From Patescibacteria group bacterium (lineage in GTDB: Bacteria; Patescibacteriota; Minisyncoccia; Minisyncoccales; UBA5738), in contig JAKLGH010000001.1 in NCBI GenBank assembly GCA_022710775.1, forward strand, positions 5,824 through 69,823: a stretch of DNA of 64,000 bases, written 5' to 3'. The notes beneath the pieces are model-generated. The model was not told the origin of the DNA and did not search any database. It saw only the letters and a list, made by a program, of their open reading frames with translations. Below, one piece after another: positions 2,017 to 43,858 of this stretch; the first letter of the stretch is position 1, and each line of letters opens with the position of its first letter. Position numbers and translations under genes: made by a program.

Positions 2017-3930
2017 ATGAAAGCTTTCGAATACAATTTTAATCCGCAGACGTCCGGTTATTTTTTTGACAGTTTTTCGTTTGAGCCAGAAAGCGGCCAT
2101 GAGAAATCGCTGGGCAGCCTTTATATGGTCGGTATTTTAAGCAATGCCCAGCAAAATGACGAGTTTTTCCTTTCCAATCTTGCCAAGAAAATAAGGGAAA
2201 ACCATTACCAGTCCAAAAGCAAGGACCTAGAAACTGCTTTGAATGAAAGTTTACAGCTGGCCAACCAGCATCTTGAAGCTTTGGTGAAAAGCGATTGCGC
2301 CGGCTGGATCAATAACCTTGGTTTTGCGGTAATAGGCATTAAAAACCGGTCAATCAATTTCACAAAGACCGGCCCGGTCAGGATTTTGCTGCTTAGGCAA
2401 GGCGGCGTCATTGATCTTGAGGAAGGAATCGATTTTCCGGAAATGGAAACATGCCCATTGAGGGTTTTTGGCAATTTGGCGATCGGTAAGCTTGAAGAAG
2501 GCGATGCGATAATGGCCGCCACGAACGGAATTGCGGATTTTTTAACGAAGCAGAAAATGGACGTCGATATAGCGGGGCTGGTCGCGCCTGAAAACGCGGA
2601 ACAGAAATTAGACGAAAAAAAATTAGAAAATCTGTTTTCTTCGCACCGGACCGAACTTGGCCAGGTGCCCGGTTCTTGCCTGATAGTGAGTTTAAGGAAA
2701 AACGAAGCGCCGGAAGCCGCAGCCGGATTTTTACCGGCCGCGAATTTAAAGAAGATGGCGCTTCGAGACGCGTTTAAGCCGACTTCTTTATCATCTCCCG
2801 TAAATACTCCTAAGCTTTCTCTGCCATCCGTCCCGCGCCTGCCGTTATTGAAAGCGGGAGCCATAATTCTGGTTATCGCCGCCATCGCCGCCGGCGGATA
2901 CCTTTACCTTCTTAACGAGAATCAAAAGAAAACGCGCGCAACCAGCGATGCTTTTTACGCCATTGAGAATAAGGTAGCTCAAGCTAAAGGCTACCAAGAT
3001 GGCGGCCAAGCCGTTGAAGCAAGCAATCTTTTGCAGGCCAGCCTGCAGGAATTGTCGGTTCTTGAAAGCCAAGCTTCATTGACCCCCGAACTCAAAGAAC
3101 AGGTCCAAGAGCTTAAAGCGCAGATCGGCGATAATATGGACAGCTTGAATAAAGTGGAAGAAACGGCCGCAATCGAACCGCTTTTCGATCTAAAGGATAG
3201 CGGGATCGATCCCCAAAAGCTTTTGCGCTTCAACGGAGAATTTTATTTTTTTGATCCCAAGGTGCAAAACATCTATTATTTGGATAAAAACAATTCGGCA
3301 AAATCCGTTGCCGGCCAGGTGAACTTTGATTCCGCGGCGGCCGGGGCAGAATCCCTTCTTTTTTTCGCCAAACCGAATCTTTTCTCCTATTACTCGAAAG
3401 GAGAGTTCTCTAAAGTAATTACCCTTAAAGACCCTTACGCCGGATATGCTTATGAAGATTTTTATACCTATGCCCAAAATCTTTACCTTATCGATAAGAA
3501 CAGCGGAAAGATCGTTAAATATCCGCATCTTGGCGGGGATTCCTGGGCTTTGCCGCAAGTCTGGCTGAATGCCGATCCGTCAAAACTGGCGATGTTTGCG
3601 TCGATGGCCTTTGATAAAAGCGCCTGGATTCTTAATAAGGATGGTTCTGTTGATAAATATTATTTGGGAAAGCTGGAAACTACGTTTAAAGCCAACTATT
3701 TTCCCGCTCCCGGACAGCCTGCTAAGATAGTAACTTCATTAGATAATCCCAATCTGTATATATTGGATAAAAATCCGCCGCGAATCGTTGTTATGGACAA
3801 GAACGGAACACTGCTAAGACAGGTTAAAAGCAGCCAGTTTAACGACATCCGCGATATCGCAGTTTCCGATGACGGTAAAAATATCTGGATTCTTAACGGA
3901 ACAGCGCTTTACAGGGTGGGCGCGGATTAA
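2017..3930 (+). CDS. Bitopic membrane protein with a cytoplasmic N-domain (weak PP2C/SpoIIE-like pattern), a central TM and a C-terminal beta-propeller-like repeat region
   Basis: 637-aa ORF with a TM segment AGAIILVIAAIAAGGYLYLL near aa 290. The C-terminal part has recurring blade-like motifs (NIYYLDKNN, NLYLIDKNSGKIVKY, SAWILNKDGSVDKYY, NLYILDKNPPRIVVMDKNG, NIWILNGTALYRV). Confidence 0.6.
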   Translation: MKAFEYNFNPQTSGYFFDSFSFEPESGHEKSLGSLYMVGILSNAQQNDEFFLSNLAKKIRENHYQSKSKDLETALNESLQLANQHLEALVKSDCAGWINNLGFAVIGIKNRSINFTKTGPVRILLLRQGGVIDLEEGIDFPEMETCPLRVFGNLAIGKLEEGDAIMAATNGIADFLTKQKMDVDIAGLVAPENAEQKLDEKKLENLFSSHRTELGQVPGSCLIVSLRKNEAPEAAAGFLPAANLKKMALRDAFKPTSLSSPVNTPKLSLPSVPRLPLLKAGAIILVIAAIAAGGYLYLLNENQKKTRATSDAFYAIENKVAQAKGYQDGGQAVEASNLLQASLQELSVLESQASLTPELKEQVQELKAQIGDNMDSLNKVEETAAIEPLFDLKDSGIDPQKLLRFNGEFYFFDPKVQNIYYLDKNNSAKSVAGQVNFDSAAAGAESLLFFAKPNLFSYYSKGEFSKVITLKDPYAGYAYEDFYTYAQNLYLIDKNSGKIVKYPHLGGDSWALPQVWLNADPSKLAMFASMAFDKSAWILNKDGSVDKYYLGKLETTFKANYFPAPGQPAKIVTSLDNPNLYILDKNPPRIVVMDKNGTLLRQVKSSQFNDIRDIAVSDDGKNIWILNGTALYRVGAD

Positions 3931-3990
3931 TCCGTCCTGGATTCTTTTGCTCAGCTGATGATGCGCGGGGGGAATACGGTAACCTTAAAC

Positions 3991-4021
3991 AAAAACGCAG
4001 GACTGCCATCCTGCGTTTTTT
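3991..4021. terminator. Bidirectional rho-independent terminator between convergent genes
   Basis: AAAAACGCAGGActgccaTCCTGCGTTTTTT: a perfect GC-containing hairpin flanked by an A-run and a T-run. Confidence 0.75.
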
Positions 4022-4058
4022 ATTATCGTTCTTCTATGTTGCCGCGCTGTTGCCCTGT

Positions 4059-4796
4059 TTAAAACTTGAACAATGATGCCAGGTAGTCAGCTATCGATTG
4101 GAATAATCCTTTCTTCGGGTTTTCAGTAGTAACAGTAATGCCCGGCTTTTCTCCGTTAGCTTCTACATCGCCTTCCGGGGTGATAGTGATCTCGGGCGTA
4201 ACTTCTTTGGGAGATGCGGGCTCGATTATTGCATTTTCAGACGGCTGCTCTGCTTGATCGGATGCTTGGTTTGCAACGTCCTCCGGTTGTTGGGCTTTTT
4301 CCGCCGGTTCAGTCTTCACTTCGGCAGGCGCTTCTTTGTTTTGGCTTGCACCTTGGGATCCGGCCTTCTGGGCCATCAGCTTTTCCGTAAGAGCGTTTAT
4401 CTCCTTTTTAATTTCGGCTATTCTCTCATTAGCGTCAACTGTGGTGGCCGGAGTTTTAGCGGCAACGGTGTTAGGATGGGCGGCCACATAAGCTTGAACC
4501 TTCTGTGCCAGGATTTCTTTTTCCTTGGCGATGCGCTGGACTTCGGCGGCGATCTCGGCCAGCGTCATTTTTTTAACCGGCGCTTCGGCTTGTTTTGCTT
4601 GAATTTTCGCGGTAAGCTCGGCTATCGTTTTTTGAAGGGTATCTATCTTGGCTTTCAATTGGGCTGTTTTTGCCTGTTCATCCGCTGCTTGCGTTGAAGT
4701 GCTAGCGTCCGCGTAGGCTTTCGGTGCCGAAGCTCCCAAAAAACCGAACGCTAGCATTATTGCCGATAATACGATAATTGCTTTATTTCGCTTCAT
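4059..4796 (-). CDS. Secreted coiled-coil protein of unknown function
   Basis: 245-aa ORF with a signal peptide ending AYA-DA. A long K/A/E/Q-rich heptad-like helical region (QLKAKIDTLQKTIAELTAKIQAKQ) is followed by an acidic tail. Confidence 0.6.
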   Translation of the reverse strand: MKRNKAIIVLSAIMLAFGFLGASAPKAYADASTSTQAADEQAKTAQLKAKIDTLQKTIAELTAKIQAKQAEAPVKKMTLAEIAAEVQRIAKEKEILAQKVQAYVAAHPNTVAAKTPATTVDANERIAEIKKEINALTEKLMAQKAGSQGASQNKEAPAEVKTEPAEKAQQPEDVANQASDQAEQPSENAIIEPASPKEVTPEITITPEGDVEANGEKPGITVTTENPKKGLFQSIADYLASLFKF

Positions 4797-13159: not shown

Positions 13160-14341
13160 TTATGTTCCGCAAGTCAAATGAGGAGCCTGGGTACCTTTCA
13201 ACCACATTGTGCCGGTGTAAGGGCCAGTGCCTTCAAACTTATCAACCAAGACGCCAAAATCGATTTCGTCATCAGTTGACAAATCGATGGTCTTGTCAAG
13301 CAAATGATAATCGCAATCAACAGGATCGCCAGCGACGCCGTATTTCTTGAACGGGTCGTAAGGAGCGTAAACACCATCGGTATTAATCTTGGCCTTGTAA
13401 TGGACATTCCAAGATGTGGAAGTAGGCGTCAAATCACGATCGCCCATTTGCATATCGTCCTGGGCAACATTGATTGCCAAGCGAGTGTTGCCGACATTCC
13501 TGATCGTCGGTCTACCGTCACCAAGCACGAAATCTTCATTGCCGGGAGCAACCACCCAATTATTCAAGGTAACCGCACCGTAAGCAACGTTGGAAAAATC
13601 GGTCTGGAACGCAGTTCCGGGATTGTAGGTGAAATAATTCACTAACGCATCGCTGGTAGCATTGGTTTTGCTCTGCGCCCAAACGTCAACCTTATATTCG
13701 CCGGAAGGATCTTCGTAGGAAAGATTCTTGTCGCAGCAATATACATACGCAACATCCTTTTTGATCCAACCATCGTTGGAACAAATTGTATCAAAGGTTT
13801 CGCCGTTCGCAAACGTGGGAAGCGTGCCGGTATTTTGGTTGCGAACTTTGTTGCAGAATAAATCCAAAGATGCATTTTTGTTCGCAAGGTGGTCATCGCC
13901 AGCAATCTTTATCATTGTGCACTCCGAACCAACCCTAGTGCTGCAACCCTGGCGGTCAGCGGGATGGTTAGGTCCAAGGGCAATATCAGGATAATAAACA
14001 TCACCATAAACGGCGTTGATATCAGTTAAGGACTGATCGTAAATCACGCCGCAGATGGAAATAACTTTGTTAACATTATGTTGCATTGACGGATCAAATT
14101 GAGCGTTTGCAATAGCCGGATAATCATCCTTGGCAAGCCCGGAAGTACCTAAAGCAGCCGACCACGGACCGTTCATTTCCCATTTGGCTTTCACGATGGG
14201 CGCAACGCCGCCGGTGCCTTTGGTCAAGCCGGTGCCAACCGTGCCAGAACCGATAACTACGGTTTGAGCTGTAGCAATAGCCGGACCAGCGGTCATAACG
14301 GCCAAAGCTACGAGCAAACAGATAGAAATAACTTTCTTCAT
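13160..14341 (-). CDS. Secreted Cys-containing protein, paralog A (unknown family)
   Basis: I place the start at the internal MKKVISICLLVALAVMTAGPAIATAQ (ATG = complement of 14339-14341), because that gives a canonical signal peptide. It shares many blocks with 15356..16642. Confidence 0.75.
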   Translation of the reverse strand: MKKVISICLLVALAVMTAGPAIATAQTVVIGSGTVGTGLTKGTGGVAPIVKAKWEMNGPWSAALGTSGLAKDDYPAIANAQFDPSMQHNVNKVISICGVIYDQSLTDINAVYGDVYYPDIALGPNHPADRQGCSTRVGSECTMIKIAGDDHLANKNASLDLFCNKVRNQNTGTLPTFANGETFDTICSNDGWIKKDVAYVYCCDKNLSYEDPSGEYKVDVWAQSKTNATSDALVNYFTYNPGTAFQTDFSNVAYGAVTLNNWVVAPGNEDFVLGDGRPTIRNVGNTRLAINVAQDDMQMGDRDLTPTSTSWNVHYKAKINTDGVYAPYDPFKKYGVAGDPVDCDYHLLDKTIDLSTDDEIDFGVLVDKFEGTGPYTGTMWLKGTQAPHLTCGT

Positions 14342-14502
14342 ATTTTTTTCGTTTTTTTCGGATTTTAGGAGAATCCGCAACCTTTTTATTTCTACCCGCC
14401 CGATCTTTTGCACTCTAATGATTTGTCGATAATCTGATAAGACATCAGCCGCGACAGCATACAGTGCAAAATCCCGGACGGGTCCCGGTCGACCACCTCC
14501 CG

Positions 14503-14558
14503 CAATCATTAATCATTGATCCTTAACCGTTAATCCTTGATCATTAATCATTAACAGC
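14503..14558 (+). repeat. Heptanucleotide array, TAAYC/TGATC type (8 units)
   Basis: caatcat taatcat tgatcct taaccgt taatcct tgatcat taatcat taacagc. Confidence 0.8.
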
Positions 14559-14694
14559 AAGGGATTGAATTTTGATTGGCGGGCCTTCTTTATTAAATTT
14601 CGGCGGCATGGCTTCGACGGCCTGTTTCGACGGCTTTCAATAAAGTGCGGGTCGCGGCTTTCCTCCCGGGAAACGCGATCCAAACTTTATTGGG

Positions 14695-14874
14695 TGAACA
14701 TTGAACGATGAACCTTGAACTTTGAACGATGAACATTGACGATGAACATTGACGATGAACCTTGAACTTTGAACTTTGAACCTTGAACGATGAACCTTGA
14801 ACTTTGAACTTTGAACGATGAACATTGAACTTTGAACATTGAACGATGAACATTGAACGATGAACATTGAACTT
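14695..14874 (+). repeat. Heptanucleotide tandem array TGAACNN (26 units)
   Basis: tgaacat tgaacga tgaacct tgaactt ... The variable dinucleotide is only AT, GA, CT or TT, and two units are 6-mers (tgacga). The array ends 3 nt from the stop codon of the four-helix-bundle gene. Confidence 0.95.
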
Positions 14875-14877
14875 TTA

Positions 14878-15249
14878 TTATTGTTTTGCTAAGAAATTTG
14901 TAAAACCTTTTAATCGTTTCGCGAGACTGGCAGCGGCTTCCAGAACTTTACCTTGATGGGCCTTGCTGATCAAATTTTCGTCGAGCGCGCAATCCAGGCC
15001 GGCGACTACCTCGTCTAATGAGCAATGAGCCCGGTTGATATAAACGCGGCGTTCTTTATCGGTGCTTTTATTGGCGCTTTCGGCGATATTAAGTATTATC
15101 GAGAGCGATGCCCTTCTAAGCTGATCGGTTAACCCAAACCTTTCTTCTTTTGGGAACAAATTCGCGGTTTCATAAATTATGGACCTGAATTTTAACGCAT
15201 CTTTATAAATATCCCAATTCCTGAATTTAAATCCAAGATCATCAATCAT
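14878..15249 (-). CDS. Four-helix-bundle protein (23S rRNA intervening-sequence protein / Avd-like family, TIGR02436-type)
   Basis: 123 aa. The sequence [80 protein letters not shown] fits the family pattern ([27 protein letters not shown]...). Confidence 0.8.
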   Translation of the reverse strand: [123 protein letters not shown]

Positions 15250-15250
15250 A

Positions 15251-15358
15251 GTTCAAGGTTTATTTTTTTGTTCATCAGCCATAGTTCATAGTTTAATGTT
15301 TATTGTTGTCTGTTCATCAGCCATAGTTCATAGTTTAATGTTCATTGTTTATTGTTCA
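15251..15358 (-). repeat. Inverted-orientation heptad region (TGAAC cores on the minus strand) containing a 31-bp direct repeat
   Basis: GTTCA (plus strand) occurs at 15251, 15270, 15284, 15312, 15326, 15340 and 15354. From 15270 onward the spacings are 14 or 28 nt; 15251 is 19 nt from the next core and out of phase. GTTCATCAGCCATAGTTCATAGTTTAATGTT occurs twice (15270-15300 and 15312-15342; period 42 = 6 heptads). Confidence 0.8.
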
Positions 15359-16642
15359 CTCATTGGAGCATTGGTAATGATCGGTTCCGGTGGCGCTTAG
15401 CGTAAGCGTACCGCTGTATTCGCTGGTCAGGGCGTCGGGGTACTTAAAGACCGTTACGCCCAGCTCCACCGCTTCGCTGGTCGAAAGATCGATCTCTCCG
15501 GGCAAGGCGGCTGACTCATTTGGCCAATAATACGTCCAGGGATTGTTACCCACGGCGTAGCGCGCGTGATAACGGATATTATAGCGGCCATCGGTTTTGC
15601 CCAGACCCATATCGTTTTGCTCGATCGAAACCCGGACGCGGGTATTGCCAAGGTTGCGGATATAAGCGGCGCCCAAGGTTTGCTTGCCGTCTTTACCATA
15701 ATATTGCGCCGTTTTATCCAGATTGGCCGCAACCGTACCGTAATTTACGCTGTTAAAATCAGCCTGGACCGCGGTAATGGGCAGGTATTCGACATTGCTT
15801 AACAGCAGGTTGGAAAAGATCCCGGCGCTGTTCTGGGCAATGACGGAAGCGCGGTAAATGCCGGAAATATCATCGTAAGCCAGGGATTGGCCGCAGCAAT
15901 ACACAGCAGCTGTTTGCTTTTCCAATTCGGCGCAAACCGCGTCGTAATTATAGCGTTCGCCTTCGGTTCCGGTGTCGCCAAAAACCGGCAAACTGGCATT
16001 ATCGTTTTTAATCTTTTGGCAAAATAATTCCAAGCCATTTGAAGCTTCCAAGGGTTTCATTTGGCAGATCGGCGAAACGGCCTGGCCGCAGCCTTGGCGC
16101 TTTTTTGCGTCGTTGGGGGCGAAAGCCGAGTTGCCGGGATATGAAAACTGGCTGTAAACTCCGAAGCTGTCATTTGGACCGGCACCGGGCCGCACCGCGC
16201 CGCAGATCTGAAAATCCGCGGAAACATCCAAGGCTCCGCTGGGCAAAAACTGGGCCAAAGGATCGGCTGAAGCGTCGGTTCCGTTATTCAGCATGGCCCA
16301 AGCCGCCATTACCGTGGGATTTGGGTTTAAAATGTCCGCTTCGCCGCTCGGGGCGGCGCCAGAAGGCGCGCCGTTGGATGAGCCGGCAGGTTCTAGGGCT
16401 GGCTGGGTTTCCCCTGCCGGGGTTATACCCGGATCGCTGACCGGATCGGTAGACTGGATTTTGCCGGTTTCCTCGGTTGAAGCGGCTGTGCCGTCATCGG
16501 TGGTGGTGGCTTCCTCAATAGAATCAGCCACCGGATCGGTGGAAGTGGCATTTTCTTCCTGGTTTTCCGCAACTAAAACCACCGGGCCAAGAATTCCCGC
16601 TAACAAAACCGCCGCCAGTAATAACGCGATAGGTCTTTGCAT
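15356..16642 (-). CDS. Secreted Cys-containing protein, paralog B (same family as 13160..14341)
   Basis: 428 aa with the signal peptide MQRPIALLLAAVLLAGILGPVVLVA and an S/T/E/P-rich linker containing QEENATST. Shared blocks include IRNLGNTRVRVSIEQNDMGLG / IRNVGNTRLAINVAQDDMQMG, VYCCGQSLAYDDISGIY / VYCCDKNLSYEDPSGEY and IDLSTSEAVELGV / IDLSTDDEIDFGV. Confidence 0.8.
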   Translation of the reverse strand: MQRPIALLLAAVLLAGILGPVVLVAENQEENATSTDPVADSIEEATTTDDGTAASTEETGKIQSTDPVSDPGITPAGETQPALEPAGSSNGAPSGAAPSGEADILNPNPTVMAAWAMLNNGTDASADPLAQFLPSGALDVSADFQICGAVRPGAGPNDSFGVYSQFSYPGNSAFAPNDAKKRQGCGQAVSPICQMKPLEASNGLELFCQKIKNDNASLPVFGDTGTEGERYNYDAVCAELEKQTAAVYCCGQSLAYDDISGIYRASVIAQNSAGIFSNLLLSNVEYLPITAVQADFNSVNYGTVAANLDKTAQYYGKDGKQTLGAAYIRNLGNTRVRVSIEQNDMGLGKTDGRYNIRYHARYAVGNNPWTYYWPNESAALPGEIDLSTSEAVELGVTVFKYPDALTSEYSGTLTLSATGTDHYQCSNE

Positions 16643-16766: not shown

Positions 16767-16976
16767 TGAACTTTGAACGATGAACGTTGAACGTTAACTA
16801 ATGAACCTTGAACGTTGAACTTTGAACGATGAACGTTGAACGTTAACTAATGAACCTTGAACGATGAACCTTGAACGTTGAACGTTGAACTTTGAACGTT
16901 AACTAATGAACCTTGAACGTTGAACTTTGAACGATGAACCTTGAACGTTGAACTTTGAACGTTAACATTTGGACTT
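16767..16976 (+). repeat. Heptanucleotide tandem array TGAACNN (30 units) with TAACTAA punctuation and a 49-bp super-repeat
   Basis: Units are tgaac + tt/ga/gt/ct. TAACTAA falls at units 5, 12 and 20, and TAACATT at unit 29. Units 1-7 are nearly identical to units 8-14. Confidence 0.95.
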
Positions 16977-17220
16977 TTTAAAAAAATGGAGTCCAAGTCC
17001 AACTTCCCCAATGTGAAAGACGGATTTGCACTCCATTATAATTTGACGCTTGATGGCAGAATAGTTCGTATTCAATTTCACGCGTCCATTTGCCCTCTCC
17101 GCAAATGGATTTTAATCATTTAAAACCCTGACTGTATTCTGATAGTATACGTTTCCCGAGCCGTGTCAAGCTTTTGACTGAAAAATTCTAGCAGTAAAGC
17201 GGACGCGCGGTCAATAGAGG

Positions 17221-17295: not shown

Positions 17296-17425
17296 TAATC
17301 GCTAATCGTTAACTTTTAATCCTTAATCATTGATTGTTAACCTTTAACCATTGATTGTTAACATTTAATCATTGATCCTTGATCGTTAACCTTTAACCAT
17401 TGATGATTAACAATTAATCCTTTAA
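17296..17425 (+). repeat. Heptanucleotide array, TAAYC/TGATY type (about 18 units)
   Basis: taatcgt taacttt taatcct taatcat tgattgt taacctt taaccat tgattgt taacatt taatcat tgatcct tgatcgt taacctt taaccat tgatgat taacaat taatcct. Confidence 0.9.
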
Positions 17426-17563
17426 CGACGAGTGCGGGTATTTGGCGAGGATTGGCCTCAAAAAGACCGGAGGCCTAACCTCTCAAATTCCCAATACCGA
17501 ATTCATACTTTCCCAATATTCAACAACCCCGGCCTGAAGGCCGGGGCTTGCGACCCGGTTAAG

Positions 17564-18187
17564 TCAAGGAAAAGCGATTTTTTTTACCTGGTTTTTTAGA
17601 AAATCTTTAATTTCCTCGAAATCAATTTGGCCGCCGCTCTTAAAATTTATCGGCTCCATTACCAGATCATCAAAAAAAACCAGGCTTTTTAAAACCAGAT
17701 TTTCATCCAGCCCGGGAAGTTTTTTTGATAACGCGGACAAAATATCCTTAAGGGGCGTCATTTTCAAAATGTAATACAGGTCAATATAATCTTTGTTGGT
17801 TCCCCGGCCGGTAATGGCCGATAGCTTCATACAGGCAATATCTTCAATCGAAGCTATATTTAGATAAGGCTCGCTGATCAAGCTATTAACCAATTCATAC
17901 GGATAAAAGAAAAAGCTTAATTTAAGGCTATCATCGATAAAAACAGTAAGCGTTCCGGCTTCTTCCTGGGCTTTGATAATTTTATGGCCGGCAAATGCTT
18001 TCGCGGTTTGCTCGAAAACCGCCGAAGTATTAATTTCGGTTTGGGAAAAAAAATCAAAGTCAACGCTATCGCGATGGCCTATCTGCAAAGCAAGGCCGGT
18101 GCCGCCGGCCAGGTAGAATTGATCCTTGAATACATTTAAAAGCGGAAGGATGGCGCTTCTTTTTTCATCTAAAATTTCGTAATGCAT
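17564..18187 (-). CDS. Nucleotidyltransferase AbiEii/AbiGii-type toxin family protein
   Basis: 207 aa. The N-terminal pattern FYLAGGTGLALQIGHRDSVDFDFFS matches the family signature as I recall it (LAGGTALAL..GHR.S.DLDFF). Confidence 0.7.
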   Translation of the reverse strand: MHYEILDEKRSAILPLLNVFKDQFYLAGGTGLALQIGHRDSVDFDFFSQTEINTSAVFEQTAKAFAGHKIIKAQEEAGTLTVFIDDSLKLSFFFYPYELVNSLISEPYLNIASIEDIACMKLSAITGRGTNKDYIDLYYILKMTPLKDILSALSKKLPGLDENLVLKSLVFFDDLVMEPINFKSGGQIDFEEIKDFLKNQVKKIAFP

Positions 18188-18193
18188 AAGCGA

Positions 18194-18475
18194 TTATTTA
18201 GCGAGCCGCCTTTTAGAAATTTCCTGTTTATTTATTTCGAGCAAAAAACTCCAATAATTCAATGATTTCGGGCTTAATTCGCCGGAGCCATGCCGGATAA
18301 TGGTTTTTGTTATTACATCGCGCGGATAATATCGCAACAGCCAATCGGAAGCCAGCCGATCGCCCAGGTTTAAAACGTTAAGGATTATTCTTTCCCTGTT
18401 TTCTTTAAGGTCAATTTGGGTTAGGTCGCTGGACCAAAGATATTTTGCCACGCCCGGAGGCAGGTGTTCGTTCAT
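18194..18475 (-). CDS. Small partner protein of the AbiEii-like gene (putative antitoxin-side component)
   Basis: I place the start at MNEHLPPGVAKYLWSSDL (ATG = complement of 18473-18475; 93 aa). It ends 6 nt before the AbiEii-like start. The longer ORF-track version (196 aa) overlaps the upstream gene with an R/P-rich, implausible N-terminus. Confidence 0.55.
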   Translation of the reverse strand: MNEHLPPGVAKYLWSSDLTQIDLKENRERIILNVLNLGDRLASDWLLRYYPRDVITKTIIRHGSGELSPKSLNYWSFLLEINKQEISKRRLAK

Positions 18476-18521
18476 AGGCCTATTATAGCACAATTTAGGC
18501 TTAAATTGAACCTGCCGATTC

Positions 18522-19862
18522 TTATTGGATGGGTGTTGAGGTGGCGTTTTCTTCGTTTGATTGCTGGGGGATGATGGCCGGCGGGCCGGTGATGGCTTCA
18601 ACAGCCTGGCCGGGGTTGCCGCTTCCGGGCGCGGCAAACGGCACAATCTCGATGGCCCGGCCCGGATCGAGCAGCACGCTATCCCCTGTTGTCTCCGTGC
18701 TGGTGGCGTTGCGGATAATATCAATAGCCTCAACGATATCTTGCGGAGGCATCGGCGCAATATCCGAGGGCGGCAGGGCGGCATCGGATATTGCTTGCGG
18801 AGCGGCAGAGGCGCGGCCGGAGTTTGAGGCTTCCTCTTCGGCCGCGATTTGGTTCATTAAGTCTTCCATTGACATCATGGGCGGGCAAAAATCACGCTCG
18901 CTGACCGCTTCGCCGACAAACGCCGCGTTGTTCCTTCCATAAGCAACCACTTTGATCCGGGCCGTATGCGTAACATAAGCGGTATCGTAGGGAAGCATCC
19001 ACAGATACGAGCCGGTATTGGGCAAGGGGGCCGGATTGATCTTAGGCAGCCAGTGGCGGCCGCTGTCGTTTGAATAATAAATATCGATGAGCAAATCGCT
19101 GTCCGGACCATAGGGATTATGGGCCGTCCAGCGGATATTGTACTGGCAGTTAGCATTCATCGCATCGGGCTTACGTTCAGTGCACCATTTGCTGCAAGCC
19201 TGATCGCGAGGGCACTGTGGCGCCACCACATACCAATGCTGTCCGCCATCGGGATAAATGACATCGACATCGGGCGTATTGCGGACTACCCGGATGTGGC
19301 TAGGAAGGTTTTCGATATGACTAAAGCCTGTTCCGTATAGCTGGCGCGCCCGGAAAATAATATCGAAATAGCAATCGGAATCGTATATCACGCTGGCCAT
19401 ATTATCCACCCGAGCCGAGAATGACCATTCCGCGGTCGAGGAGGCGTATTCCCCGGCATCATAGGCAAAATCAACCAACGGACCGCTATAAACTACCGAA
19501 TTTCCAAGCGAGGCATCAAGCAACAAGTTATCACAGACATCAAGCGTAGTTGTGGCCGCCTGGATTCCGACATCATACTGAAAATCAATAGTTCCGGCGG
19601 CAATAATGCGGATAGCGCGTTCAGATACGCCAACTTGCGCATTAATTTCCGGGAATTCGGCAGGTGAAACAAGAGAAAAGTCAATCATACCAATCCGGAA
19701 CGTATTGCTATCACTAGACCTGGTTCGGGAAAAATACGCCCAAACCGGTGCCGGAATCATAAGACTGGGAAGAACAATCAGAATAATCAAAAAACCACTG
19801 ATCAGAGACCGCAGCAATTTTCCGAATTCAAAATACCTATGATTCTTAAAAACGTTGATCAT
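18522..19862 (-). CDS. TasA/camelysin-like secreted protein with a SipW-cognate-type N-terminus, an Ig-like domain and an S/T/P-rich tail
   Basis: 446 aa. The N-terminal TM is followed by VWAYFSRTRSSDSNTFRIGMIDFSL. The Ig-like block is YNIRWTAHNPYGPDSDLLIDIYY. The tail contains N-x-T motifs (IRNATSTE, EENATST). The start overlaps the sipW stop as ATGA. Confidence 0.75.
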   Translation of the reverse strand: MINVFKNHRYFEFGKLLRSLISGFLIILIVLPSLMIPAPVWAYFSRTRSSDSNTFRIGMIDFSLVSPAEFPEINAQVGVSERAIRIIAAGTIDFQYDVGIQAATTTLDVCDNLLLDASLGNSVVYSGPLVDFAYDAGEYASSTAEWSFSARVDNMASVIYDSDCYFDIIFRARQLYGTGFSHIENLPSHIRVVRNTPDVDVIYPDGGQHWYVVAPQCPRDQACSKWCTERKPDAMNANCQYNIRWTAHNPYGPDSDLLIDIYYSNDSGRHWLPKINPAPLPNTGSYLWMLPYDTAYVTHTARIKVVAYGRNNAAFVGEAVSERDFCPPMMSMEDLMNQIAAEEEASNSGRASAAPQAISDAALPPSDIAPMPPQDIVEAIDIIRNATSTETTGDSVLLDPGRAIEIVPFAAPGSGNPGQAVEAITGPPAIIPQQSNEENATSTPIQ

Positions 19863-40431: not shown

Positions 40432-40565
40432 GCATTCACTGAATAATTTTCAATTTTAATTCAATAAATGATCAATGCGGCAATTTTCAAATAAAACGCA
40501 TGTTTGCCCGTTTTATAGAAACATTGAAAATTAATTGAAAATTGATTATTGCCAATTGACAATTA

Positions 40566-40901
40566 CGAAGCGAACTCGTGTCGGCTGGGAGGGATGGATT
40601 CGGACTTACTCACCATTCCCCTAGTGCTTAAACAAACTTCATCTTCTACTGCTCGCCCTGAGTGAGCGAAGCGATCGAAGGGTGGGCTGGGAGGGATGGA
40701 TTCGGACTTACTCACCATTCCCCTAGTGCTTAGACAAACTTCATCTTCTACTGCTCGCCCTGAGTGAGCGAAGCGATCGAAGGGTGGGCTGGGAGGGATG
40801 GATTCGGACTTACTCACCATTCCCCTAGTGCTTAGACAAACTTCATCTTCTACTGCTCGCCCTGAGTGAGCGAAGCGATCGAAGGGTGGGCTGGGAGGGA
40901 T
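40566..40901. repeat. 102-bp tandem repeat, about 3.3 copies, whose last copy is the 3' end of tRNA-Tyr
   Basis: GGCTGGGAGGGAT recurs at 40583, 40685, 40787 and 40889 (exact period 102). Copies are nearly identical, with one A/G difference. Each unit carries the tRNA segment ATCCCTCCCAGCCCACCC (minus strand). Confidence 0.95.
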
Positions 40902-40970
40902 TTGCACCCCCGAAGGCGTGAAGCCACCGCGTTTACAGCGCGGTCCATTTGGCTACTTTGGTACCAACCC
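40887..40970 (-). tRNA. tRNA-Tyr (anticodon GTA), type II with a long variable arm
   Basis: Hand fold: acceptor GGGTTGG/CCAGCCC; D arm CCA-AAGTAGCCAAA-TGG; anticodon arm CCGCG-CTGTAAA-CGCGG; 15-nt variable arm; T arm GGGGG-TGCAAAT-CCCTC; discriminator A. The T loop is unusual (G where U55 is expected). Confidence 0.75.
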
Positions 40971-43144: not shown

Positions 43145-43858
43145 CTACCATCCCTTGGTTTCCAGGGCTATCCGCGCCGTTTCCTCTTCGGCTTCCTGCT
43201 TGGACGTTCCTCCGCCTTTGGCAATAAGCTCCGGTCCGATATAGACGCCGACCAAGAATTGCTTGTTATGATCGGGCCCCTTTTCTTCCAGCACCCGATA
43301 GGTCGGCGTTATTTTCATTTTTTCCTGGGCGACTTCCTGAAAGCGCGATTTTGAATCTTTGTAAAGCTTTTTCTCGATAATCTCGGGTAATTCGCGGATC
43401 AAACTTTCATAGATGAACTGCCGGCAAGCTTCATATCCGGAATCCAGATATAAGCTTCCGATAAATGCTTCATAGGTGTTCGCCAGGATATACTGCCTTG
43501 ATTTGCCTTCTTCTTTCGACTCGCCCTTCGACAGAAGAAGAAAATCGCTGAATCCTAGTTTATAAGCCACAGAGGAAATCATTTTCGTGTTAACCAGCGC
43601 CGCTCTCCAGCTGGTAAGCTCCCCTTCAGGCTTGCCCGGATACTTACGGTAAAGATATTCAGTGGCTACCAATTCCAGAACCGCATCCCCTAAAAATTCC
43701 AGCCGTTCGTTATTGCCCAGGCCGATCTGCGGATTTTCGTTCAGATATGAGCGGTGGATAAAAGCCTGCGTCAACAGATTTTTATCTTTAAAAGCGATCT
43801 TCAGCTTCTGTTCCAGCGCCGTAAAGTCTTTGGACGCATTTTTTTCATTATTATTCAT
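43145..43858 (-). CDS. rnc: Ribonuclease III
   Basis: I place the start at [10 protein letters not shown] (complement of 43856-43858). Signature [21 protein letters not shown] and a C-terminal dsRBD ([10 protein letters not shown]). It overlaps the nusB stop by 8 nt. Confidence 0.9.

Follow-up and report, generated by a model that had tools for sequence, protein, structure and literature searches.

An intervening-sequence-like cassette outside rRNA: a four-helix-bundle gene framed by complementary heptad arrays in a Patescibacteria genome

INTRODUCTION

Can an element of the kind that interrupts bacterial 23S rRNA genes reside between ordinary protein-coding genes? The question is raised by a locus in a 64,000-nucleotide stretch of a Patescibacteria group bacterium (GenBank assembly GCA_022710775.1, contig JAKLGH010000001.1, positions 5,824 to 69,823; the whole stretch is called the window here, and its own numbering is used), in which a gene for a 123-aa four-helix-bundle protein, encoded on the minus strand, is preceded and followed by arrays of 7-nt repeats whose cores are complementary. 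In Coxiella, RNase III cuts the 28-bp stem of a 23S rRNA intervening sequence (IVS) that carries an S23p open reading frame (ORF) in its loop (PMC4990558), and the origin and function of 23S IVSs and of the conserved S23p ORF are, decades on, still described as unclear (PMC4990558). A preliminary description of the window read the gene and its flanks as an IVS-like cassette that had landed outside rRNA and that possibly seeds or spreads the heptad arrays.

We report that the description as an IVS-like cassette outside rRNA is well supported, because the arrangement recurs in relatives and on plasmids, true IVSs have heptad arms as well, and arms and ORF form one unit in a comparison of Nostoc with Calothrix. 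On balance, the region is probably a copy of a widespread cassette, consisting of a PF05635/TIGR02436 ORF within inverted arrays of short, mostly heptad repeats, which in this Nealsonbacteria-related Patescibacteria genome sits within a protein-coding gene cluster and would act in mRNA through RNase III.

RESULTS

A four-helix-bundle gene within complementary arrays

The 123-aa protein scored 83.7 bits against PF05635 (23S_rRNA_IVP; E 1.3e-23, cut-off 33.8) in a Pfam profile search, with residues 11-114 aligning to positions 2-105 of the 106-position profile, and 75.6 bits against TIGR02436, "four helix bundle protein" (cut-off 24). It thus passes both curated cut-offs with full-length coverage and belongs to the family to which the preliminary description had assigned it. 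The nearest structure in the PDB is 2GSC (XCC0516; E 1.6e-10). The gene at 14878-15249 is the sole copy in the window, as tblastn and phmmer searches of all six frames of the 64 kb returned no second or decayed four-helix-bundle gene near the other arrays. A search with Rfam gave no rRNA match anywhere in the window and, at the gathering threshold, no known RNA family at the cassette region, and the neighbours of the cassette are protein-coding ORFs, not rRNA. The cassette therefore lacks the one defining feature of an IVS, a location within rRNA (23S helix 9, 25 or 45).

Tandem Repeats Finder (TRF) detected five period-7 arrays in the window, all of them non-coding and all within 14.5-17.5 kb (Table 1). 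Ahead of the gene, the call for the array designated the 5' arm covers 15246-15358 (period 42, 2.7 copies, 87% match). On the plus strand this arm holds seven GTTCA cores, of which six share a register modulo 7 (there are twelve cores if GTTYA is allowed), exactly the set of TGAAC cores noted earlier in gene sense. It also contains an exact repeat with a 42-nt period; the period had been given correctly before, and the length is 32 nt rather than 31. The 5' arm takes up the whole stretch between the stop of the 428-aa gene upstream and the AUG, and the arrays thus fill both intergenic gaps. Behind the gene, the call for the 3' arm (14695-14872; period 7, 25.7 copies) includes 24 TGAAC cores on the plus strand, spaced at 7 nt save for two 13-nt steps, which in gene sense are the complementary GUUCA cores already reported. 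Chance was rejected as the origin of the arrays, given that the window has 42 occurrences of TGAACNNTGAAC where 0.11 would be expected and that the energy of the duplex between the arms lies about 10 standard deviations beyond shuffles. A coding role was rejected too, the ORFs of 50-86 aa that run across the arrays being artefacts of the periodic repeats.

Inverted repeats between the two flanks extend over 90 nt at 73% complementarity and over 33 nt at 85%. The minus-sense RNA from 14690 to 15360 is predicted to fold into a structure that contains a long-range stem, with a minimum free energy (MFE) of -162.6 kcal/mol (20 shuffles; z = -2.9), and the duplex of the 5' arm with the 3' arm was predicted at -69.8 kcal/mol, compared with -25.9 ± 4.3 for shuffled arms; about 77 arm-arm pairs are expected in the ensemble. 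By inverted repeats, MFE, ensemble and duplex energy alike, complementary borders enclose the ORF in a predicted loop, as in an IVS, and the long imperfect stem proposed in the preliminary description is borne out at the level of prediction. Its detail differs at the start codon: UUGAAC and GUUCAA are both present beside the start and stop codons, as described, but the region of the AUG and first codons (15239-15260) is predicted to pair, with a probability close to 1 in the ensemble, with 14800-14821 and not with the stop-proximal unit. Because of the 7-nt periodicity, many pairing registers are near-equivalent.

The 3' arm on its own is nearly without self-structure (MFE -7.3 kcal/mol; shuffled, -31.2 ± 4.4), which leaves it free for a distant partner. 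The array at 16767-16963, in the leader of the 428-aa gene, forms a predicted duplex with the 5' arm (15250-15358) of -68.9 kcal/mol (shuffled, -26 ± 4); the inverted-repeat pairs recorded for this array are I9, I15, and I19-21. Because this array pairs with the 5' arm as well as the 3' arm does, the RNA could adopt either of two long-range structures that exclude each other: one would enclose the four-helix-bundle ORF, the other the 428-aa gene, which is thus framed by inverted arrays in its turn.

Framing in Patescibacteria relatives

Relatives of the gene were collected from 80 metagenome loci (49-73% identity), dereplicated to 50 including the window; retrieved loci are cited by number with the prefix L. 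In most of the 50, short-period repeats could be seen by eye to reach the ATG and to begin at the stop codon (e.g., ...TGACGATGACGATGAC...ATG / TAGTCATAGTCATCGTCA...), with units that vary by locus and include TGAC, TAAC, TGAAC, TAATC, TTATCC, and TTACT. Periods of 6-8 nt, mostly 7, were present in 33 of 50 5' flanks and 17 of 50 3' flanks, compared with 1.6% of shuffles. The 6-mers common to a 5' flank and the reverse complement of a 3' flank averaged 5.56 for cognate flanks, 2.37 for non-cognate flanks, 1.40 for shuffles, and 1.24 for the same strand (permutation p < 1e-4 for the cognate excess), and mean RNAduplex energies were -37.6 kcal/mol for cognate and -30.4 for non-cognate pairs (p = 6e-6), the flank pair of the window being the best of its row and column in the cross-comparison. 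In this set of relatives the 5' and 3' flanks are thus complementary specifically to one another. A framing score of at least 6 was reached by 42% of relatives and by 5% of control genes, namely other genes of the same contigs with non-coding flanks of at least 60 nt (Fisher p = 2e-5). When the comparison was loosened, the two top-scoring "other" genes turned out to be further PF05635 paralogs, framed by the unit AGTAGCN/NGCTACT.

Heptad arrays as such are not exclusive to the family. By TRF, 16-18% of the other gene ends in related contigs adjoin such an array, and enrichment measured in this way is weak (33% versus 16% upstream, and no difference downstream). The k-mer and duplex tests, with cognate, non-cognate, and other-gene controls, replaced the TRF test because TRF misses short arrays and arrays of mixed 6- and 7-nt units and because arrays are common beside other genes. 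Above-background flank complementarity was also seen at two small genes of other kinds, one for a PD-(D/E)XK_3 protein (L189, 5699-6106), bracketed by a 10-bp perfect inverted repeat (AACACGGATC/GATCCGTGTT), and one for a Gp49/HigB-like protein (L147, 2542-2880).

At none of the 49 related loci does the gene interrupt a 23S gene; the copy in L146 lies about 470 nt upstream of one. Several copies were found near tRNA genes: those in L153 and L141 adjoin tRNAs, and in L203 and L206 the gene (approximately 4001-4366, plus strand) lies antisense between tRNAs at approximately 3773-3959 and 4403-4497 (minus strand).

Framing in other phyla and in genuine 23S rRNA IVSs

A tblastn sample of plasmids yielded 12 loci, of which 11 (mostly cyanobacterial, plus Riemerella) lie outside rRNA. 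Inverted heptad arrays of unrelated sequence frame eight of these 11 (Table 1), with 7-19 inverted 6-mers against 0-4 direct ones; two more have direct arrays on both sides, and the remaining copy has an array on one side only. Framing of this kind was likewise found in L023, L058, L059, and L194; in loci from the TGAAC scan described below it occurs in Acidimicrobiaceae, Draconibacterium, and Desulfobacterales (GGTTTTC/GAAAACC). Framing thus recurs outside rRNA in Patescibacteria, Cyanobacteriota, Bacteroidota, Desulfobacterales, and Acidimicrobiaceae, with units that vary and arms that are complementary within each locus.

Some copies sit inside operons, between nrdA and nrdB (L210), cas6 and cas4 (L211 and L217), and cmr2 and cmr3 (L218). 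On Nostoc edaphicum plasmid pNe_5 the order is nrdA, (GTAGGGA)n, ORF, (TCCCTAC)n, nrdB; at the homologous junction of Calothrix NIES-4105, whose flanks are 85% identical, a 16-nt spacer stands in place of the cassette. Arm, ORF, and arm are therefore one presence/absence unit in this comparison. The cas6-cas4 junction carries the cassette in two distant cyanobacteria (L211 and L217).

The twelfth plasmid match, on AZO_p2 of Azospirillum lipoferum, interrupts helix 45 of a 23S rRNA gene. Through homologs of its ORF five other loci were reached, which amount to four additional distinct IVSs; in these the Rfam large-subunit rRNA model spans the insert, at helix 45 (L222, L224, and L226/L228) and in the helix-25 region (L229). 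The stem arms of all six retrieved IVS loci are heptad-periodic, the unit being CAGARGW in the 5' arm and WCYTCTG in the 3' arm. The cassette and the retrieved IVSs share ORF family, stem-loop layout, and a repeat-built stem; with this match, and with its recurrence in several phyla, the earlier reading of the locus as an IVS-like cassette outside rRNA holds.

Age of the arrangement and arrays without the gene

The nearest homologs of the gene are in Patescibacteria, with Nealsonbacteria DGGOD1a first (73% identity) and Minisyncoccales and the Parcubacteria group next. The complete genome of DGGOD1a has the gene at the same place, downstream of the ortholog of the 428-aa gene and upstream of orthologs of the 449-, 323-, and 1100-aa genes (syntenic set d415/d327/d782 for the 449-aa gene cluster). 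Between window and DGGOD1a the neighbouring proteins share 28-40% identity, compared with 72% for the four-helix-bundle protein, whose gene has dN 0.20, dS 2.2 (saturated), and dN/dS of about 0.09. Synteny, saturated dS, and the low ratio show that the gene has long been at this site, under purifying selection, and did not arrive recently, so that the claim that it has landed here does not stand if a recent event is meant.

The DGGOD1a arrays consist of short TGAACGA/TGACGA runs before the gene and, after it, TGAAC repeats followed by a 237-nt GTTCA array; a TTAACGA array (L005, 11420-11449) lies 35 nt upstream of the next gene, the ortholog of the 449-aa gene. For the GTTCA array, the predicted duplex with the adjoining TGAAC repeats has an energy of -91.7 kcal/mol (shuffles, -35 ± 6.5); that with the 5' array is weaker, at -34.5 kcal/mol (shuffles, -24.7 ± 3.8). 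Array type and position are conserved between window and DGGOD1a despite this remodelling.

A scan for (TGAACNN)×4 in one genome per species gave at least 120 loci, in Acidobacteriota, Planctomycetota, Bacteroidota, Verrucomicrobiota, Cyanobacteriota, Patescibacteria, and others, and 8 kb was fetched for each. A four-helix-bundle gene was present within the fetched 8 kb at three of 120 array loci among the matches listed, even with a broadened hidden Markov model, and the other 117 were without it. A general link between TGAAC arrays and the gene was rejected on this count, and the suggestion that the cassette seeds or spreads the arrays finds no support in it or in the frequency of arrays at other gene ends. 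An inverted partner array was found within 1.5 kb at 27 of 120 loci among the matches listed, mostly 13-177 nt away. These "empty" heptad hairpins have the form (GTTCANN)n, a 13-177-nt loop, and (TGAACNN)n with no ORF, and are intergenic in Acidobacteriota and other phyla; examples are L013 2359-2494, L035 4103-4200 (between a ybaB-like stop and a recR start), and L043 807-883, with 24 others among L010-L129. They could be relics or targets of the cassette. In a Desulfobacterales contig with two four-helix-bundle genes (L059), a long near-perfect inverted repeat at 1090-1660, each half of which comprises four GTTCAAR heptads and some 25 nt of unique sequence, surrounds about 450 nt without a convincing ORF and may be a decayed cassette.

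Layout of the window

The remaining features are collected in Table 1. The 428-aa and 449-aa proteins are paralogs (32% identity); the 428-aa protein is 40% identical to DGGOD1a d573 and has no Pfam match. A second heptad type (TTAATCA/TTGATCC/TTAACCN) precedes both paralogs (14504-14554 and 17308-17426). Directly upstream of the array region are an AbiEii nucleotidyltransferase toxin gene and its upstream DUF6922 partner (17564-18187 and 18194-18784, minus strand), a type IV toxin-antitoxin-like pair. At 40583-40901, next to tRNA-Tyr (40885-40970, minus strand), lie 3.1 copies of a 102-bp unit that are 99% identical; each unit opens with the tRNA-Tyr 3' end, the pattern expected of repeated integration or duplication at a tRNA attachment site. 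tRNA-Thr and tRNA-Trp follow, and there is a short AATTGAC heptad run at 40533-40564. Three independent assemblies of the contig are identical through the arrays, with no variation in repeat number. Independent assemblies L002 and L003 break in or beside the arrays (window positions of approximately 15298, 16707, and 14701), and the arrays thus fragment short-read assemblies and will be under-represented in metagenome bins.

Table 1. Features at and around the cassette in the window, and plasmid copies framed by inverted heptads
Feature	Position or host	Strand	Description
Four-helix-bundle gene (PF05635/TIGR02436), cassette "loop"	14878..15249	minus	123 aa; Pfam and TIGR02436 profiles
5' arm	15250..15358	minus	109 nt; degenerate UGAAC/UAAAC heptads (gene sense); 42-nt super-period
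3' arm	14695..14877	minus	183 nt; ~25 GUUCA heptads (gene sense; TGAACNN on plus strand); 28-nt super-period
Second TGAACNN array	16767..16963	minus	28 copies; 49-nt super-period; leader of 428-aa gene; TRF
TTAATCA/TTGATCC-type heptad array	14504..14554		Period 7, 7.3 copies (TRF); upstream of 449-aa gene
TTAAYC/TTGATC-type heptad array	17308..17426		TRF; 49-nt super-period; partly self-complementary; inverted-repeat pairs I7, I10, I24
428-aa predicted secreted protein gene	15356..16642	minus	ORF list; stop codon abuts 5' arm
449-aa predicted secreted protein gene	13160..14509	minus	Downstream of cassette; leads conserved three-gene set
Two sigma-70-like promoter matches	17142..17214	minus	TTGACC-18-TAGAAT (with TG), TTGACA-16-TACTAT; each 10/12; consensus matches only
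rnc (RNase III), candidate processing enzyme	43145..43858	minus	PF14622 5e-36, PF00636 6e-26, dsrm 2e-13
Framed plasmid copy	Nostoc edaphicum		GTAGGGA/TCCCTAC
Framed plasmid copy	N. punctiforme		GGGTGTR/YACACCC
Framed plasmid copy	Geminocystis		AAGGGAA/TTCCCTT
Framed plasmid copy	Picosynechococcus		GGAGATA/TATCTCC
Framed plasmid copy	Riemerella		GGTTCAA/TTGAACC
Framed plasmid copies	Leptolyngbya, Anabaena, Stanieria		Inverted heptads

DISCUSSION

The cassette may act in RNA as follows. Good promoter-like matches on the minus strand occur only at 17214-17142, upstream of all three TGAAC-type arrays, and these candidates, which are consensus matches only, would put all three arrays on one transcript; no terminator-like site was found after the four-helix-bundle gene. 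Transcription of the cluster would then probably start upstream of the 428-aa gene, and in the resulting RNA the UGAAC array (15358-15250) would pair with a GUUCA array, either the one after the ORF (14877-14695), enclosing the four-helix-bundle ORF and burying its AUG, or the one in the leader of the 428-aa gene (16963-16767). The long imperfect double-stranded RNA so formed would be a substrate for RNase III, and the rnc gene that had been pointed out at 43145-43858 does encode RNase III and double-stranded RNA-binding domains. Cleavage would free the small ORF message from the polycistron and would determine how stable the flanking secreted-protein messages are or how well they are translated. 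From the precedents of the 23S IVS and of the hmw1A leader, we infer that RNase III may cleave the arms; we infer likewise that pairing occurs at the level of RNA rather than DNA, together with the relevant strand, the effect on neighbouring genes, and the role of the protein. The arrangement suggests control of two secreted-protein genes, in a bacterium of episymbiotic type, via alternative long-range array pairings.

A number of observations weigh against this scheme. The stem is imperfect (73-85% complementary), with 5-bp cores and 2-nt mismatched spacers between them, and could be a poor RNase III substrate. Among the 50 Patescibacteria loci, the best ungapped helix exceeds the 95th percentile of shuffles in 26, about half. 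Selection for a stem in sense mRNA should leave G·U in excess of A·C among mismatches, and the helices of the Patescibacteria set show the reverse on the sense strand (31 A·C versus 11 G·U). The antisense (plus-strand) duplex is the stronger in the window (-93.8 versus -69.8 kcal/mol) and the more stable in 35 of the 50 loci, window included (Wilcoxon p = 0.006); the sense duplex is the more stable in all five true IVSs tested and in eight of 12 other non-Patescibacteria copies. This strand asymmetry argues against a simple sense-mRNA model in the Patescibacteria clade, in which the orientation of the ORF relative to the arrays is opposite to that of TGAAC-type copies in other phyla. Moreover, the paralogous 428-aa gene has an array of its own, so that the long 3' array may be part of the downstream gene's leader and not of the cassette. 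Finally, a pure stem model leaves unexplained the two plasmid copies with direct arrays on both sides, in Pseudanabaena (L217, 604-703 and 1064-1163; GCTAAAA×13 and GCCAAAA×10) and Gemmatirosa (L219; CTCCTGC type).

Alternatively, the cassette might be mobile at the DNA level, its arrays being the ends of a mobile unit or else the halves of a heptad hairpin that was there already and was split when the ORF inserted into its loop, with pairing in DNA as a cruciform or hairpin during replication or recombination. This explanation, which is compatible with the RNA model, strikes us as possible but on the unlikely side. It would account for the joint presence or absence of arms and ORF between nrdA and nrdB, for copies within operons and stable-RNA genes (at the cas6-cas4, cmr2-cmr3, and nrdA-nrdB junctions, in 23S helix 45 and the helix-25 region, and between tRNAs), for the empty hairpins, and for the excess of A·C over G·U mismatches, in which there is no sign of sense-RNA selection in the Patescibacteria clade. 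Against it, the gene calls and domain search of the window gave no transposase, integrase, or homing endonuclease adjoining the cassette, no target-site duplication is visible at the filled and empty Nostoc/Calothrix junctions, and the arms are wholly different between loci, which excludes a single end-recognising enzyme; a transposon or miniature inverted-repeat transposable element was rejected on these grounds. The window copy is, in addition, an old syntenic resident, and no relatives were found in viral contigs, so that phage carriage was rejected as well. The arrays could also belong to the neighbours, as cis-regulatory leaders of the secreted-protein paralogs in the manner of the TAACTGA repeats and the hmw1A repeat, with the small gene merely lying between them and the inversion incidental. 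Upstream of both paralogs there is indeed a plus-strand TGAAC array as well as one of the TTAAYC type, GTTCA and TTAACGA arrays persist in the leader of the downstream gene's ortholog in DGGOD1a, arrays are found at other gene ends in related contigs and at the 117 gene-free TGAAC loci, and there are precedents (PMC4679880, PMC12721329). We nevertheless judge ownership by the neighbours improbable, as complementary framing is specific to the gene family within the same contigs (42% versus 5%) and recurs in distant phyla and in rRNA, where there is no neighbouring protein gene, as the degenerate 5' arm, reaching from the upstream stop to the AUG, has no other obvious owner, and as repeat copy number is constant among the three contig assemblies.

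Still more doubtful is the idea that the arrays are putative multivalent binding sites for the four-helix-bundle protein, used for autoregulation or for a role in trans at other arrays, with the 7-nt period reflecting protein spacing. The strict short period is consistent with it, as are the correspondence of repeat unit to protein clade (TGAC/TAAC/TGAAC in Patescibacteria, CAGARGW in IVSs), the direct arrays of L217 and L219, and the freedom of the 3' array from self-structure. Relatives of known structure are pentamers, and Avd, a four-helix-bundle relative, binds a reverse transcriptase. The nearest structure, 2GSC, has been described as five four-helix bundles forming a homopentamer (PMC4990558). 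Shared ancestry, however, confounds unit sequence with protein clade, and the complementarity of the arms, the strongest signal in the data, is not needed by a binding model. In a broader conjecture, ORF-bearing 23S IVSs would be the rRNA subset of a much larger cassette family in mRNAs, tRNA operons, and rRNA across Bacteria, protein and arrays would co-evolve, the pentameric protein would bind, maintain, or generate the 7-nt repeats, and cassettes would be the source of some bacterial heptamer arrays (STRR, TAACTGA-like, and empty hairpins). We hold this to be a long shot, of about the same standing as ownership by the neighbours; if true, RNA-level excision would explain harmless insertion within essential transcripts. 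An mRNA-resident cassette of IVS type, whose paired arms would be a likely RNase III substrate, remains the reading that we prefer.

COMPARISON WITH KNOWN SYSTEMS

The Avd proteins of diversity-generating retroelements belong to the same four-helix-bundle superfamily, and the 123-aa protein has a weak match to PF22296 (bAvd; E 0.0044). Identity with the retroelement accessory protein Avd was rejected, as the equivalog model NF033474 gave 26.6 bits against a cut-off of 80. Among genes called within 10 kb on either side no reverse transcriptase family was recorded, template and variable repeats not having been searched for.

The cyanobacterial STRR heptamers were reportedly described by Mazel et al. 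in 1990. Heptamer direct repeats ending just before start codons occur in Beggiatoaceae, Cyanobacteria, and Bacteroidetes, with no link to a gene family (PMC4679880). The five arrays of the window are likewise tandem intergenic heptamers near start codons, and they resemble the TAACTGA (PMC4679880) and STRR repeats in being non-coding, in often ending a few nt from a start codon, and in their patchy distribution, in phyla that are also rich in four-helix-bundle paralogs. Units related to the TAACTGA type (TAACTAT and TTAACTA) are present in the 5' arms of relatives; the likeness of the window arrays is in kind only, since their unit is TGAACNN or TTAAYCN. Unlike these repeats, described as direct and without a partner array or gene-family link, the window arrays are inverted pairs around one family. 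A search of the full-text literature returned no paper linking PF05635 genes to heptad arrays; it covered subscription journals and family notes thinly, and a prior mention is possible. Bacterial heptamer arrays have been described without an established function, and the evidence presented here links them to the S23p ORF family.

A leader in Haemophilus influenzae offers a parallel for processing. In that of hmw1A, ten (ATCTTTC) repeats make up the left arm of a long hairpin, RNase III cleaves the hairpin, and RNase III is needed for changes in repeat number (PMC12721329). As in the window, tandem heptamers in the leader (5' untranslated region) of a gene for a surface or secreted protein make up one arm of a long hairpin, with RNase III as the proposed processor. 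The partner arm in hmw1A is a G-rich unique sequence and its loop has no ORF, whereas the window has two array arms around a conserved gene. Position and predicted pairing of the window arrays fit the hmw1A case; the three contig assemblies, for their part, are identical through the arrays.

Another close counterpart is the ORF-bearing 23S IVS, as in Leptospira and in Coxiella burnetii at helix 45 (PMC4990558). The cassette differs from it in sitting between protein-coding genes and not in rRNA, in having longer and less perfectly complementary arms (109 and 183 nt, compared with the 28-bp Coxiella stem), and in its predicted strand preference, the antisense stem being the stronger in the cassette and the sense stem in true IVSs. 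In both, a PF05635 ORF is looped out by terminal inverted repeats in a unit of approximately 0.4-0.7 kb, the genome encodes RNase III, and the arms of the retrieved IVSs are heptad arrays of the same kind. In sum, inverted arrays of short, mostly 7-nt repeats are a signature of the family that is common to its rRNA and non-rRNA copies and is gained or lost together with the ORF, and this signature provides a concrete search rule for such cassettes.

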